Positions 59,088 through 64,000 of a DNA stretch of 64,000 nucleotides are shown here, piece by piece (position 1 is the stretch's first letter; the number at the start of each line of letters is the position of its first letter). Below the pieces are notes generated by a model. It made no database searches, was not told the DNA's origin, and saw only the letters and a program-made list of their open reading frames with translations. Both the position numbers and the translations under genes were made by a program. This stretch comes from a plasmid: sequence record NZ_CP039562.1; one strand, 5' to 3'.

Positions 59088-59290
59088 ATAAAAAGATCCG
59101 AACTTTGTTGGTTCAGTGTGCCAGGGTATTCATACAAAAACTGGAACACCAGTCTGGCAAATTGGCCGATTGGGTCAGGGATTTACTGTGCCGGAAAAGC
59201 AACTTTGTCGTCACTTGTGCTCTGGCAAACAAGCTGGCCAGAATAGCCTGGGCCCTAACGGCACGACAGCAAACTTATGTAGCATAACGG
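59088..59290 (+). pseudogene. C-terminal fragment of an IS110-family transposase (5' part removed at the IS26 boundary)
   Basis: ...VTCALANKLARIAWALTARQQTYVA* resembles the conserved C-terminal helix of IS110/IS1111-family transposases. The ORF begins exactly at the IS26 end. Confidence 0.4.
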
Positions 59291-59691
59291 CAGAAATACA
59301 CCGGTTTAAAGAATTACTGATCTGGTTTTGCGAATACTGATATTGATGATACTAACGGCCCACCGGCCTGTTGAGGAACCTGTAAAACGGAAAGGCTCAT
59401 TGAAGCCGTATATTTTCTGGAGGTTCATCAGGCGCGGAACTCATCAAGGCGCGGGAATAAAATCCCATTCAGACGCCGGATAGATTCAAGCAAGCCAACT
59501 TGTCGTCAAAATCGGTGTTGCAAAAACGGGAGTGACCATAGATTCCGTTTTCTGAGACGACCCCTTGTAGGATTGGCTGTATCTGGGGACACTATAACCG
59601 TCAAAGAAGCCGGTTTGGTGTTGGTCATTGGGGTTATCCTGTGGATCTATGGTATAATCTTAACCAAGGTCAGCAATTCCTAAGGGGGTCA

Positions 59692-59808
59692 AATGGACGC
59701 TTTCACATTAGGCATGTTGGGGTTGCTCATTTTTTTCACTGTCGTCACTGGCGGCAGTCTGTATCTCTACCATGAGAAACAGAAGGAAAAAAAGCATCAC
59801 AACGCCTA
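59692..59808 (+). CDS. 38-aa single-TM micropeptide (MDAFTLGMLGLLIFFTVVTGGSLYLYHEKQKEKKHHNA) followed by a strong terminator
   Basis: RBS aagggggtcaaatg. Terminator aaaggccagcaatagctggccttttttt at 59833-59860. Confidence 0.4.
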
Positions 59809-59878
59809 AAGAGTAACTGCGACAATGAACGTAAAGGCCAGCAATAGCTGGCCTTTTTTTATACTTGCAGTTTGAGGT

Positions 59879-60304: not shown

Positions 60305-60417
60305 AGTGACACTAGGGGTTGCATTTTTAAAACCCGTGATAGCATCTAAATGAACCCAAACGAATAGGGGGGCTGGCGGCGATGCCGACCATTATCCCGA
60401 CAATGGAGAAATAGACC

Positions 60418-61143
60418 ATGATGACATTGACTACCGTCTCGAAGAAAACTTCAAATAATTCAGCCCTTGTATTCTGGCGCGTTGGTACAAAACGGAAAGG
60501 CATCCTTGATGTCCATATTGATTTTGACCACGAAGAAGCGGATCTTTTGGCTGAGCTCGTAGCCATTCGCTATCTGGCGCTGGACAAACAGGTTTTTTGC
60601 AGAGAGCCAGGTGCTGGTGCTGGTTACAAGCTGGTGGTATCCAAAGGTGCAATCAAGAAGCTGGCGCTGGGCAAATCCACCAAGGCTTTTGCTTTCAAGT
60701 TTGCGGCTTGCCTCACTGGGCGTTTAAAGGGCGCTACTATTGAAGTCTCGCAGAGCATGGAGTTTATGGATGAGCCGGGAGAGGGCAACATTGAGCTCCT
60801 CGATGTGGACAAGCAAGCCTATACCCAGACCCATGACGAAATATCTACACCTGCCATTGGCCCCGTCCTGGTTACTCAACATGCCATCGATCAGTATCAG
60901 GCCCGGATAACCTCTGGAGACCCTAAAAAACCGTGGGCCTCACTTGTTGGCCGCCTCCAGCATCCAGAGTTACAGGTTCAGCCCTTTGACGAGAAAGTGG
61001 CTCGCCATAAAGCCAGAAAGTATGGCCGCGTAGATAACGTGGAAGTCTGGGGCCATAGAGATTCCAAGTTCAAGTACCTGATGGTGATCAACGACGACAA
61101 CCAAAAACGTGTTCTTGTCACAGTGTTTGAGCGAAATGAGTAA
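60418..61143 (+). CDS. Hypothetical 241-aa protein
   Basis: RBS ggagaaatagaccatgatg. No recognisable domain. Upstream of, and co-oriented with, the Rhs gene. Confidence 0.4.
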   Translation: MMTLTTVSKKTSNNSALVFWRVGTKRKGILDVHIDFDHEEADLLAELVAIRYLALDKQVFCREPGAGAGYKLVVSKGAIKKLALGKSTKAFAFKFAACLTGRLKGATIEVSQSMEFMDEPGEGNIELLDVDKQAYTQTHDEISTPAIGPVLVTQHAIDQYQARITSGDPKKPWASLVGRLQHPELQVQPFDEKVARHKARKYGRVDNVEVWGHRDSKFKYLMVINDDNQKRVLVTVFERNE

Positions 61144-61275
61144 CCTGCTTCTCATTTGTTCTGAATACACAACCTCTCCAAATCACGTATTCATACCCTA
61201 AAAGGGCAATAACGCAGTCGTTGATAACGACTCTCCCACCTGAAAATAGCTCCAGCATAAAAACTGGAGCTGTAA

Positions 61276-64000
61276 ATGAGATCGAGACCTTCCCTTTTAC
61301 TGATGCGAAACCTGCGGTCATTGGCCGTTGTGGTGCTCGCAACTTTGCCATGCGTTGCTTTTGCACAATGGCGGGTTGTAGCCGTGAGCACCGAAGTAGA
61401 CAAAATGCGCTTCAACACCATCATAGACGCGCATTCCTTCATGAAGAATTATCGCTCTGGTGAGGAGCAAGGGAAGGGAACGCCAGTTGGGGATGCGCTT
61501 TATCCGGTTGCCAGTTATGGTGATGGCCGTTATGTCTCCAGGATCTGTTTTAAGTATCTAGGTGCTACTGGCGATTATGACCCCACTACCTGCACTGGCG
61601 ACCCAGCTACGGTCTACTGGCGCTCAACCTATGTTCTGCCGGGTGAGATGGATAAAACACCGTTCCTGGACAGGGATCTCGGCTTACCAACAACGACCAT
61701 GTGTGTAGGGAACCCTATCCATCTTGGCACCGGCAACAAGTTCCAGGCTGAACTGGATTATCAAAGCGGAGGCTCCGACCCTTTCACATTCACCAGATAC
61801 TACAATAGCCACCTTCCTGATGAAGAGCTCGGCGGCTGGCGGCATACCTACTCGCGGAGCGTCGAGGTCAACGCCTCGAAGTACGGTGAGAACATGGTTG
61901 TCCTGCACCGGCCAGAAGGGCAACAACTCGCGTTCTACAACTCGTCCTCTGTCTGGGTGCCAACATGGAAAACCGATGATACCTTGACGAAGGATGCTAC
62001 CGGCTGGCGCTACACTCAATCTGACGGGGTAGTCGAGGCCTATGATGAAACCGGACGACTGACCGGCATCGAGAAGCCCAACGGCAATCACATCACCCTG
62101 AGCTATCTGAACGGAGAGCTATCCTCGATCACTGACGGCTTTGGCCGCACCATCCAGTTCCAGTATCAAGATGGCCGCATGGTCAGTGTCACCGATCCTG
62201 CTGGTGGCAGTATTCAGTACCAGTACAACAGCGCTGGCAAGCTGGCGGAAGTGATCTACCAGGACAATACGAGCCGCAGCTATCTCTACGATGACCCGAA
62301 TGCACCGGGTTTGCTCTCTGGGCTGGTGGACGAGAACGGCAACCGTTTCGCCACATGGGGATATGATACTCAGGGGAGAGCGGTTCTAAGCGAACACGCC
62401 GGGGGCGCAGAGAAAACTCAGGTAAGCTACAACGCTGACGGAAGCGTCTCTGTCACCAATGCCCTCGGCCACGTTCAGCGATACACCTACAGTCGCCACA
62501 ATGGGATGCTCAAGCCTGATGTGGTTGAGGGTGCGCCGTGTACCGGCTTTGTGGGCGGCAAGGAAACCTACGTCTACGACAGCAAAGGCCTCGTCTCCAG
62601 CATTACTGACCGCGCTGGGCAGAAGCGCACGTTCACCCATAACGACCGGGGATTGGAAACCACCCAGATAGACCAGGACGGGGGTAAGGTTACGACCGAC
62701 TGGCTTCCTTCCAAGTCGCTCCCGGCAAAAATCACAGAACCAACCAGGATCACTGAGCTCACCTACGACACTCATCTCCGGGTGATAAGCCGCAAGGTCA
62801 CTGATCGCAGCTCGGGCGCTTCCCGGACATGGACCTACACCTATGCCCCTGTTGGTACAGGAAAGCCGAGCCTGTTGGCCTCGGTTGATGGTCCGCGCAC
62901 CGACGTCAGCGATGTTACGACATTTGACTACGATGACCAGGGCAACCTGATCCGGACAACGAACGCGCTGGGGCAGGTGACGCAGTTTGGTGACTACGAC
63001 GCGAACGGTCGCGCCGGGACCATTCAGGGTGTCAATGGTGTAACCCAAACCCTCACCTATGACGCCAGAGGAAGACTTGTCAGCTCCACTGGGCCAGAAG
63101 GAACCACGGTCTACAACTATGATGCTGTGGGCCTCCTGAGTTCGCTGACCAAGCCAAATGGTGCAACCGTCAGCTATGAGTACGACGCTGCACATCGGCT
63201 GGTGGCGGAAACAGATGCACAGGGCAACCGGCGCGAGCTTGAGCTCAATGACCTCGGGAACCCAGTAGAAGAGCGACTGCTCGATGCGCTGGGCCAGACC
63301 CGTTGGATAGAGCGCCGGATCTTCAACGAAATCGGCTGGCTCTCCAGTGTCTCCGACGCCTATAGCAATCAGTCATCGTTTTCCTACGATGTGGTGGCAA
63401 ACCTGATACAGGAGACCAGTCCCTCTGGTAACACACACTCCTACAAGTACGACGGCTTCCATCACCGGACACAAACGACCGATCCCCTCGGGAAGGTCAC
63501 GCAGGTGCTCTACAAGGATACCGGCGATGTTTACCGTGTCTCCGACCCTCGTTCGCGCCTGACCTACTACAGCTACAACGGCTTTGGCGAAGTGACCCAG
63601 GTCCGGAGCCCGGACACCGGCACCACCGACATTACCTATGACGAAGCCGGTAACGTGGCAACGCGCAAAACGGCCAAGGGGCAAACCACAAGCTACAGCT
63701 ATGACGCGCTGAACCGGATCATCGAAACCTCCAGCGATGTCGCTGGCGAATCGCCAATTCTGTACGGGTACGACGAAGCAACCTCACCATACGGCATAGG
63801 CCGCTTGACCTCAGTCGATGATGGCAACGGTGTCCGGAGATTTGGCTACACCCCCGAAGGATGGCTGGCTTACGAAACCTGGGAAACCCACGGGCAGAGC
63901 CTGACTACCCAGTACCAATACGATGGTGCAGGCCTCGTCACGAAGATCACGTATCCCAGTGGCCGTGAGGTCTCCTACACCCGTGACTCAGCCGGTGACG
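61276..64000 (+). CDS. Rhs/YD-repeat protein with N-terminal Sec signal peptide; 3' end beyond the window (≥908 aa shown)
   Basis: ATG 61276 (RBS ggag 7 nt upstream) gives MRSRPSLLLMRNLRSLAVVVLATLPCVAFA|QW... Continuous open frame to 64000 with >20 YD repeats (e.g. QYQDGRMVSVTDPAGGSIQYQYNSAGKLAEVIYQDNTSRSYLYDDPNAPGLLSGLVDENGNRFATWGYDTQGRAV). Not in the ORF track because it has no stop in the window. Confidence 0.85.
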   Translation, partial: MRSRPSLLLMRNLRSLAVVVLATLPCVAFAQWRVVAVSTEVDKMRFNTIIDAHSFMKNYRSGEEQGKGTPVGDALYPVASYGDGRYVSRICFKYLGATGDYDPTTCTGDPATVYWRSTYVLPGEMDKTPFLDRDLGLPTTTMCVGNPIHLGTGNKFQAELDYQSGGSDPFTFTRYYNSHLPDEELGGWRHTYSRSVEVNASKYGENMVVLHRPEGQQLAFYNSSSVWVPTWKTDDTLTKDATGWRYTQSDGVVEAYDETGRLTGIEKPNGNHITLSYLNGELSSITDGFGRTIQFQYQDGRMVSVTDPAGGSIQYQYNSAGKLAEVIYQDNTSRSYLYDDPNAPGLLSGLVDENGNRFATWGYDTQGRAVLSEHAGGAEKTQVSYNADGSVSVTNALGHVQRYTYSRHNGMLKPDVVEGAPCTGFVGGKETYVYDSKGLVSSITDRAGQKRTFTHNDRGLETTQIDQDGGKVTTDWLPSKSLPAKITEPTRITELTYDTHLRVISRKVTDRSSGASRTWTYTYAPVGTGKPSLLASVDGPRTDVSDVTTFDYDDQGNLIRTTNALGQVTQFGDYDANGRAGTIQGVNGVTQTLTYDARGRLVSSTGPEGTTVYNYDAVGLLSSLTKPNGATVSYEYDAAHRLVAETDAQGNRRELELNDLGNPVEERLLDALGQTRWIERRIFNEIGWLSSVSDAYSNQSSFSYDVVANLIQETSPSGNTHSYKYDGFHHRTQTTDPLGKVTQVLYKDTGDVYRVSDPRSRLTYYSYNGFGEVTQVRSPDTGTTDITYDEAGNVATRKTAKGQTTSYSYDALNRIIETSSDVAGESPILYGYDEATSPYGIGRLTSVDDGNGVRRFGYTPEGWLAYETWETHGQSLTTQYQYDGAGLVTKITYPSGREVSYTRDSAGD

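Follow-up and report, generated by a model that had tools for sequence, protein, structure and literature searches.

The window analysed here, a stretch of 64,000 nucleotides read on one strand from a plasmid (sequence record NZ_CP039562.1), ends in a locus (positions 59,088 to 64,000) that is dominated by a long open reading frame (ORF) for an Rhs/YD-repeat protein. Comparison with other plasmids identifies this ORF as rhs1, the type 1 allele of a named backbone gene of IncC plasmids, and places 59565-64000 in the IncC backbone, beside the right end of the resistance island ARI-A. The explanation that we consider best, and on balance probable, is a modular IncC backbone carrying a polymorphic toxin/immunity pair formed by Rhs1 and the product of the gene that follows it. 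IncC rhs1 itself is already known, as is its class of architecture, which was described in 2012.

The rhs1 Locus Belongs to the IncC Backbone

The interval 59088-64000 is 100% identical to many IncC plasmid records, and its backbone part, from 59565 onward, has 100% identical copies in hundreds of plasmids. DNA of rhs1 finds matches in 907 plasmid records from at least 10 genera. Positions 4526-64000 are 100% identical to pST-1 (NZ_CP050727) of S. Typhimurium ST113, an IncC/F-type hybrid with mcr-3.1 in which the Rhs gene is complete. Together with its alternative allele rhs2, rhs1 serves as the standard marker that distinguishes type 1 from type 2 IncC plasmids (PMC6872532, PMC7652850).

The edge of the backbone can be placed to the nucleotide. 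With a 501-bp junction probe, the matches of thousands of unrelated non-IncC plasmids are confined to 59400-59564 and break off at 59564/59565, and those of IncC plasmids without the island begin at 59565. From 59565 to the rhs1 start codon at 61276 there are 1711 bp, and ARI-A has been reported to be "always located 1.7 kb upstream of rhs1", with IS4321 lying within the terminal inverted repeat of the island (PMC13463583). Because the match splits at 59564/59565 and agrees with this published position, we assign the IS26, the IS4321 stub and the inverted repeat that precede 59565 to the right end of ARI-A, and the DNA from 59565 onward to the backbone. The first-pass annotation of this DNA, made from the letters alone, had described a block that abuts IS26, begins with a stub of an IS110-family transposase and was imported as a unit. 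Import as a unit is ruled out: mobile DNA ends at 59564, island-free backbones such as that of the type 2 plasmid L002 are continuous across this point, and it is ARI-A that was inserted into the backbone. The locus is indeed an exact copy of an annotated IncC rhs backbone segment, a possibility raised at the time, though not of one with a known function.

Rhs1 Carries a Signal Peptide and a Repeat Shell

From its ATG at 61276, rhs1 stays open in frame 1 to the end of the window (908 codons, no stop), as had been predicted, and searches with hidden Markov models support its identity as an Rhs/YD-repeat protein (Pfam RHS_repeat, 2.6e-74; DUF6531, 6e-14; TIGR01643 for the repeats, 4.3e-60). The earlier count of more than 20 repeats could not be reproduced: Pfam delineates 12 stretches in the part within the window and 17 in the full protein, and the part within the window contains eight YxYD motifs.

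Residues 1-30 of Rhs1 (61276-61365; the genes and elements described here between 58268 and 64000 lie on the plus strand unless stated otherwise) form a Sec-type signal peptide with predicted cleavage between AFA and QW. Its n-, h- and c-regions are all present: there are four arginines, residues 16-29 make up a hydrophobic core of 14 residues (Kyte-Doolittle maximum 2.56), and AFA precedes Q. The first-pass annotation had noticed the signal peptide and this cleavage site. Leaders are also present in the homologues P0082, P0086, P0112, P0113, P0115 and P0118, which share 37-79% identity with Rhs1; in five of these diverged proteins (P0082, P0112, P0113, P0115 and P0118) the leader sequences differ, and all of them end just before the conserved QWR/AWK. 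Judged by this conservation, the signal peptide of Rhs1 is genuine. The Prokaryotic Genome Annotation Pipeline (PGAP) starts the gene at GTG 61384, which removes the leader and yields the 1381-residue product WP_011872905. Since diverged homologues keep leaders at the same junction, this start in all likelihood truncates a real one; a GGAG ribosome-binding site is found 6 nt upstream of the ATG, and none is obvious at the GTG. The combination of a signal peptide with RHS repeats constitutes a listed export class of polymorphic toxins, Sec/type II secretion system (T2SS) (Zhang 2012, PMC3482391), so the earlier remark that a Sec leader on an Rhs protein is unusual was overstated. The architecture of Rhs1 is uncommon among studied enterobacterial Rhs proteins and not new in kind.

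Mature Rhs1 begins with a clade-specific N-terminal domain of ~115 residues (61366-61707), which has no Pfam match and is seldom seen: a set of 1.84 billion proteins yielded just 12 cluster representatives. The domain is followed by a DUF6531 plug (residues 145-220) and the YD-repeat shell, both assigned by Pfam, which occupy 61708-64000 and continue past the window. Pfam matched no PAAR or other domain related to type VI secretion (T6SS) in full-length Rhs1, and the neighbours of rhs (the primase operon, a MatP-like gene, an s073-like gene for a 241-residue protein, and an integrase gene) include no vgrG, Eag chaperone or T6SS gene.

The stretch 61144-61275, which is absent from IncA plasmids, comprises the left end of the rhs cassette and its leader region. 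Within it, an RNA hairpin (61246-61273) is predicted to cover the rhs Shine-Dalgarno sequence (GGAG, 61266-61269). The hairpin has a perfect 10-bp stem (UAGCUCCAG...CUGGAGCUG) and a minimum free energy of -19 kcal/mol (z = -4.7; none of 200 shuffled sequences folds as well), and it may exert translational control of Rhs1.

The Predicted Toxin Tip and Its Candidate Immunity Gene

The part of Rhs1 past 64000 was read in two identical plasmids, L001 and L090. Full-length rhs1 encodes 1417 residues, ends 1.53 kb beyond the window and is followed by an ORF of 140 residues, which overlaps the rhs1 stop codon and encodes a soluble product. The Rhs-associated core (TIGR03696, 2.9e-24; PF03527, 3e-12) spans residues 1148-1246, contains the motif DPLGL...DPTGE and precedes a tip of ~170 residues (~1247-1417). 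The prediction that a toxin tip and an immunity gene would lie just past 64000 was therefore borne out in these plasmids, by the DPLGL core boundary, the tip and the 140-residue candidate.

Between rhs1 and rhs2, DNA identity amounts to 96.5% as far as L001 17933 (residue ~1248, the end of DPTGE). Past the core end they are wholly different, for ~0.95 kb in rhs1 and 1.4 kb in rhs2, and then 99.4% identical again. The rhs2 tip is an EndoU domain (8.3e-12), behind which follows a MafI-family immunity gene. Alignment of the two alleles thus indicates that tip and immunity gene were swapped together and are inherited together. Synonymous divergence between rhs1 and rhs2 rises toward the 3' end of the core, and a 35-40-bp copy of core DNA is found at the downstream junction (L001 18885-18923 and 17664-17698, compared with L002 14182-14221 and 15870-15903). 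Recombination that replaces a tip typically leaves both of these marks; the copy of core DNA is probably such a mark, or else the remnant of an orphan core.

In twelve homologues of the Rhs1 tip (44-62% identity), a pair of hydrophobic Gly-zipper helices precedes a segment in which HHW, N, HP-NL and H...H never vary, and the end is marked by CxC. The pattern LHHW...N-HP-NL...H...H, with H1334 and H1335 as the paired histidines of Rhs1, makes an HNH-like, EndoVII-type nuclease domain possible, and the Gly-zipper helices may mediate membrane insertion or translocation. Two diverged tip homologues are each followed directly by an ORF; these two ORFs show homology to one another (8e-9), and they match the 140-residue ORF in a profile comparison (hhalign 88.6%, E 2.7e-6), which alone gave a match, pairwise BLASTP among the immunity candidates being not significant. 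These relationships support the view that tip and 140-residue ORF are a conserved toxin-immunity pair.

The CxC motif, GCGC, falls within the last ~8 residues of the Rhs1 tip (L001 ~18415-18439) and is shared by P0112 and most members of the alignment. In P0112 the central toxin domain differs and the Gly-zipper pre-toxin segment is common with Rhs1. Because P0112 keeps both elements around another toxin domain, it suggests that conserved flanking modules surround an exchangeable toxin core; the terminal cysteines might form disulfides in the periplasm. On a TARA metagenome scaffold (L093, 1700-5900), a homologue of the tip that lacks an Rhs shell stands in a row of small ORFs of 164, 231, 161 (the tip), 154 (immunity-like), 32, 161, 237 and 137 residues, which looks like an orphan toxin/immunity array.

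Distribution and Maintenance of the rhs Cassette

The rhs cassette comprises ~4.9 kb (L001 14053-18998), is absent from IncA plasmids and begins right after the stop codon of the gene for the 241-residue protein: homology with IncA extends to L001 14052 (window 61139) and is picked up again at L001 18999. Among the 907 plasmid records, 405 cover at least 80% of rhs1 and the immunity gene, ~350 show the rhs2 pattern, and the rest are truncated. A ratio of nonsynonymous to synonymous substitution rates (dN/dS) of 0.16 across the 1246 codons of the core, which contain no stop, denotes purifying selection. A scan for defence systems with PADLOC returned nothing for Rhs, the MatP-like protein, the 241-residue protein or the immunity candidate. 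Beyond the cassette, type 2 and IncA plasmids encode a 150-residue signal-peptide protein (downstream of rhs2 at L002 16005-16457), where L001 has only a 49-residue ORF (19025-19174); the latter may reflect a frameshift or a pseudogene, and the PLSDB gene table omits pseudogenes.

A MatP-like Protein with a Double Box

Upstream of the gene for the 241-residue protein lies a gene for a MatP-like DNA-binding protein of 124 residues (59930-60304), with a TTG start and the ribosome-binding site AAGGTGA. The protein matches the Pfam MatP N-terminal domain (PF06303, 7.6e-7), the NCBIfam MatP model (NF003471, 5e-8, profile positions 38-125 of 148) and the MatP structure 4d8j in the PDB (1.5e-4). These matches cover a helical segment, a basic linker and the strand-helix of a ribbon-helix-helix (RHH) domain, and the protein accordingly consists of a helix-bundle remnant, a basic linker and RHH, without the C-terminal coiled coil of MatP. 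It stops at MatP residue ~123 of 150 in the alignment and scores 33 bits as against an equivalog cut-off of 165 bits. The first-pass annotation had recognised an RHH-like gene at 59903-60304. Its GTG start at 59903 has to be given up for TTG 59930, which is called by PGAP and which, when the gene is aligned with a homologue of 60% identity in L010, an IncC-like element of Shewanella, falls opposite the ATG of the latter.

Two inverted 12-bp matS-like boxes occupy 59879-59914: GTTACATGTCAC, 12 nt and GTGACATGTAAC make up a perfect inverted repeat (59879-59890 / 59903-59914), and each box is in turn near-palindromic (GTGAC-AT-GTAAC). The repeat had been reported before, as a palindrome overlapping the start of the RHH gene; as the gene starts at TTG 59930, it lies upstream of the coding sequence without overlap. 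The double box occurs once in the window. In L010 both 12-bp boxes are 100% conserved, the spacer between them has 11 nt rather than 12 and another sequence, and no Rhs follows the genes there. Overall, the double box is present in all four fetched loci that possess the MatP-like gene, and the remaining 85 lack it. Its conservation in L010 and its co-occurrence with the gene lend credibility to the earlier proposal that the palindrome is the operator of the adjacent RHH protein, and we take the boxes to be the putative operator of the MatP-like protein. Because a strong terminator lies directly upstream, any transcription of the gene would have to begin anew within the ~70 bp containing the boxes. 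The MatP-like protein is most likely an autorepressor, and it is predicted to act as a local repressor rather than as an organiser of the chromosome. No further MatP-like boxes occur in the window. One perfect host matS consensus (GTGACAGTGTCAC) is found at 40761-40773, in the F-type tra region, and is probably there by chance; 39% of shuffled sequences hold at least one.

No strong terminator was found between the MatP-like gene, the gene for the 241-residue protein and rhs. IncA and L010 each conserve, independently, the 120 bp upstream of the middle gene, an indication that this gene has a promoter of its own. In IncA (L003), the palindrome and the MatP-like gene (window ~59874-60297) are replaced by an unrelated gene of 203 codons. 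This gene (L003 9512-10123, IncA plasmid pIBAC_Incx3_A/C) matches the PADLOC candidate defence family PDC-M14B (8.6e-11), and hipA and a PAAR-domain gene are found further downstream in the IncA locus.

The 241-Residue Protein Marks a Probable Equivalent of Hotspot HS3

The gene at 60418-61143 encodes a backbone protein of 241 residues and occupies the position of s073 in SXT/R391 elements. The protein has no Pfam or NCBIfam match, in keeping with its first description as a protein of no recognisable family, and appears to combine an N-terminal RNase H-like fold with a C-terminal RelE/ParE/BrnT-like fold. Of the RNase H catalytic set, the family conserves Glu (E46) alone; conserved in the C-terminal domain are T153, H155, R163, K198, Y202, H213 and R239. 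The gene is under strong purifying selection (dN/dS 0.04-0.05).

We surveyed 80 genomic loci encoding homologues of this protein. A primase gene lies directly upstream in 62 of them, whereas Rhs is nearby in two and a MatP-like gene in two; IncA keeps the gene and has neither rhs nor a MatP-like gene. On these grounds the gene appears to be an ancestral backbone gene and a partner of the primase gene, not of rhs. The upstream genes had initially been seen as accessories of Rhs, a view that their association with the primase gene and the gene content of IncA do not bear out, and a dedicated three-gene system of RHH gene, 241-residue protein and rhs is ruled out by the IncA gene content together with the survey.

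On a Providencia chromosome (L085), which holds a typical locus, the order DUF3150, CobT/VWA, RadC, a small ORF, primase, the homologue of the 241-residue protein, TraF and TraH reproduces that of integrative and conjugative elements (ICEs) of the SXT/R391 type. In these elements, hotspot HS3 is located between s073 and traF, and s073 is dispensable for transfer (Wozniak et al. 2009, PMC2791158). From synteny, at ~33% identity to the ICE group, we infer that the gene is the s073 counterpart. Since it occupies the s073 position and the cassette starts after its stop codon, rhs by this reasoning sits at the IncC equivalent of the variable hotspot HS3 of SXT/R391. In Vibrio mytili (L018 485-961), a 158-residue Rhs fragment, 64% identical to IncC Rhs, lies ~5 kb upstream of a homologue of the 241-residue protein; the gene is not intact there, the fragment being a remnant.

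The Primase-Operon Tail and the Resistance Island

In the uninterrupted type 2 backbone of L002, the gene order is primase (with Zn-ribbon, DUF7146 and Toprim domains), a 92-residue protein, a 79-residue protein, a 38-residue protein with terminator, MatP-like protein, 241-residue protein, rhs2 and the MafI immunity gene. The tail of this primase operon survives in the window. The gene for the 79-residue protein (annotated 'permease') persists as a 3' remnant (59565-59683); it is intact at L002 8880-9119, where position 9001 corresponds to window 59565, and comparison of the two indicates that it was split by the insertion of ARI-A. Next comes the operon's final gene, which encodes a hydrophobic micropeptide of 38 residues (59693-59809; WP_000338626 in IncC) with 56-100% amino acid identity in IncA and IncC-like elements and a dN/dS of 0.13 relative to IncA. 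An intrinsic terminator (59833-59863), consisting of a 10-bp stem with six GC pairs and a 4-nt loop (59833-59856) and a T-run, closes the operon and is kept in IncA (L003) and in L010. Micropeptide ORF and strong terminator had both been noted previously; their attribution to the rhs block does not hold, as they close the primase operon. The source being an IncC/F hybrid, the IncC backbone left of ARI-A, that is, the primase gene and its neighbours, is not adjacent here.

The right-hand end of ARI-A is made up of three elements, in an order that had been read correctly from the start as IS26 followed by an IS110-family transposase stub. IS26 (58268-59087; 820 bp, DDE_Tnp_IS240 5.7e-49) is 100% identical to IS26 copies in L001 and is part of the resistance island, not of the rhs locus. 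It cuts a 3' remnant of IS4321 (IS110 family; 59088-59541), of whose transposase the final 70 codons remain, ending at 59287; a full-length transposase is found at the same place in L001 (11196-12200), and the end of the element would lie near 59541. The outer 23 bp of a 38-bp terminal inverted repeat of the Tn21 family follow on the minus strand (59542-59564, GGGGTCGTCTCAGAAAACGGAA). Altogether, three IS26 copies in alternating orientation (46549-47368, 52801-53620 and 58268-59087) flank blaTEM-1 (56757-57617), what is left of mer (merD/merE and an incomplete merA, ~55700-56640) and a resolvase that is likewise truncated, an arrangement typical of resistance regions reshuffled by IS26. Further left, 4526-48999 matches the F-type transfer region of pST-1 (traM to traX, finO, psiAB and hok) at 100% identity; PLSDB types pST-1 as having an IncC replicon and a MOBF relaxase, with mcr-3.1 near.

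Discussion

How might the modules of this locus work together? From an abstract perspective, the backbone may be partitioned into four modules of different ages: the tail of the primase operon, an inserted regulator module, an ancestral s073-like gene and the rhs cassette. We envision a scenario whereby the MatP-like protein, as RHH dimers bound to its two boxes, would repress its own promoter and possibly also read-through into the genes downstream. Rhs1 would be translated from the ATG at 61276, conceivably at a rate limited by the hairpin that sequesters its Shine-Dalgarno sequence, and the Sec signal peptide would then send it to the periplasm, with processing of the leader. The YD-repeat shell would enclose the tip until the aspartyl autoprotease motif of the core (DPLGL...DPTGE) releases it. 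The tip might then act on nucleic acid in a bacterial target, and the cytoplasmic 140-residue protein would shield the producer. In type 2 IncC plasmids the same shell holds an EndoU RNase tip, with MafI-family immunity.

Most likely, Rhs1 and the 140-residue protein form an antibacterial toxin/immunity pair that would be independent of both T6SS and host and would favour plasmid-bearing cells; it would disfavour plasmid-free cells or cells with the other type of IncC plasmid. Leader-dependent export would suit IncC because the plasmid passes between widely differing hosts, in which a compatible T6SS cannot be counted on. One may extend this idea and picture the IncC Rhs as a self-contained T6SS-independent weapon that, thanks to its Sec leader and rare N-terminal domain, is exported and delivered from any host, serves population-level addiction and lineage exclusion in a major family of multidrug-resistance plasmids, and is gated by a repressor paralogous to MatP and by the Shine-Dalgarno hairpin, a proposal that we hold to be less likely than not.

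Several observations weigh against the proposed toxin/immunity pair or its regulation. The searchable literature yielded no function of an IncC Rhs and no AcaCD regulation. We identified no plasmid-borne secretion partner that would take a periplasmic Rhs of ~150 kDa across the outer membrane. The Rhs1 tip has no Pfam match at E <= 1, LHH, AHH and HNH toxin models included, and its sequence weakly matches, in the PDB, the tip of the pore-forming Tse5 (E 0.18). A placement of the tip in a described toxin family was tried and rejected, Pfam giving none and the PDB only this weak match and one spurious hit to a designed protein. In view of the Tse5 match, the tip might instead depolarise membranes, an activity against which the soluble immunity candidate argues. 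Moreover, rhs is often truncated or interrupted by insertion sequence (IS) elements and large resistance regions while the plasmid is kept, so it must be dispensable for plasmid replication, maintenance and transfer. As for the regulator, a scan for consensus sigma-70 promoters at the boxes found none, and the boxes have 12 bp with a 2-nt centre, as opposed to the 13 bp and 3-nt centre of matS.

The frequent interruptions also bear on a different interpretation, in which the rhs cassette is passenger DNA, a relic toxin module that settled in a permissive hotspot and is now decaying. Targeting of rhs by IS elements and resistance regions, the many truncated copies, the existence of IncA relatives without rhs and a position equivalent to a hotspot of variable DNA are all what one would expect of such a relic. 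However, ~400 records carry an uninterrupted or near-complete rhs1 with its immunity gene and ~350 carry rhs2, the core shows a dN/dS of 0.16 over 1246 codons without stops, the two lineages keep different complete tip/immunity pairs, and the signal peptide is conserved across distant homologues; we therefore consider decay unlikely. Alternatively, the MatP-like RHH protein might be the autoregulating antitoxin, and the RelE-like C-terminal domain of the 241-residue protein the toxin, of a type II toxin-antitoxin (addiction) pair to which Rhs is unrelated. Such a pairing is quite improbable, because 78 of the 80 loci with the 241-residue family lack a MatP-like gene, the family member usually following right after the primase with no small partner between; because IncA has an unrelated 203-residue gene in place of the RHH module; because a gap of 113 bp separates the two genes; and because s073, at the same position in SXT/R391, is reported to be dispensable (PMC2791158).

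If Rhs1 is a toxin, its route and its target have to be considered as well. Most studied enterobacterial Rhs toxins are T6SS effectors. Rhs1 might accordingly be cargo of a host T6SS, the leader being an artefact of annotation and GTG 61384 the true start, as the shorter 1381-residue WP_011872905 annotated by PGAP would have it. The GGAG at ATG 61276 without an obvious counterpart at the GTG, the differing leaders that five diverged homologues keep at the same junction, the lack of a detected PAAR or T6SS-related domain and of an adjacent vgrG or chaperone gene, and a host range of at least 10 genera render this very hard to believe. With similarly little confidence we regard Rhs1 as a host-interaction or virulence factor directed against eukaryotic cells instead of bacteria, in the manner of P. 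aeruginosa RhsT or of Tc-toxin cocoons. IncC hosts are often animal-associated, and signal-peptide-bearing Rhs proteins such as RhsT have been listed under T2SS/TcdB-TcaC export (PMC3482391). Yet both alleles have dedicated cognate immunity genes, their tips are of interbacterial nuclease types (EndoU with MafI; the putative HNH-like tip), and no gene for a TcA-like translocator lies nearby.

IncC plasmids rank with the chief carriers of blaCMY, blaNDM and further resistance genes, and rhs1/rhs2 is one of just four features that divide their two lineages. If Rhs1 were an active Sec-dependent interbacterial toxin, the plasmid would encode a factor for competition or addiction that works in hosts without a T6SS, which could help to explain why type 1 and type 2 lineages remain distinct. 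Several annotations can be corrected: rhs1 starts at ATG 61276 in place of the GTG chosen by PGAP, the 'RHH' gene encodes a MatP homologue with a conserved, putative double operator, and the gene for the 241-residue protein is the partner of the primase gene at the s073 position. At the level of annotation, the new points are where rhs1 and the RHH gene truly start, the MatP-like putative repressor with its double matS-like putative operator, the protein of apparent RNase H-like and RelE-like folds in the position of s073, the placement of the cassette at an equivalent of HS3, and a family of tips, unclassified and possibly HNH-like, together with the family of their immunity proteins. In the searchable IncC literature we found no description of the leader, the tip/immunity logic, the MatP-like regulator or the HS3-equivalent position.

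The individual modules can be compared with known systems. With rhs1/rhs2 of the scheme of Harmer & Hall (pR148, pR55), our locus shares 100% identity over 59088-64000, the position and the 140-residue ORF, but that literature treats the gene as a typing marker and insertion site only. In loci of the SXT/R391 type, the family of the 241-residue protein lies between the primase gene and traF, and in IncC variable cargo (rhs and more) begins directly behind its stop codon; unlike these ICEs, IncC has an extra regulator module upstream. The MatP/matS system has a homologous helix-bundle segment, basic linker and RHH, and matS (GTGACRNYGTCAC, GTGAC-RNY-GTCAC), like the plasmid boxes, is built of inverted GTGAC / GT(A/C)AC pentamers. 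In contrast to MatP, however, the plasmid protein has 124 residues, lacks the coiled coil for tetramerisation and falls below the equivalog cut-off, and it is accompanied by only two boxes of 12 bp, both in its own upstream region, whereas the 13-bp matS sites are dispersed over a domain.

The PAAR-Rhs effectors of the T6SS (Tse5; RhsA/RhsB of Enterobacter, Dickeya and Pseudomonas) have in common with Rhs1 the DUF6531 plug, a shell of YD repeats, the core motif for autoproteolysis and the polymorphism of tip and immunity gene, and the Gly-zipper segment of Rhs1 weakly resembles Tse5-CT (E 0.18). Rhs1 differs from them in that no PAAR was detected, no vgrG is linked and no chaperone gene is present; it has a conserved Sec leader instead. 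It is the RHS toxins of the Sec/T2SS class, such as B. subtilis WapA and P. aeruginosa RhsT, that combine a signal peptide with YD shell, DPxG core end, variable tip and downstream immunity gene as Rhs1 does. What sets Rhs1 apart from these is its rare clade-specific N-terminal domain and its residence on a broad-host-range conjugative plasmid in diderm hosts, whereas WapA acts in a monoderm.

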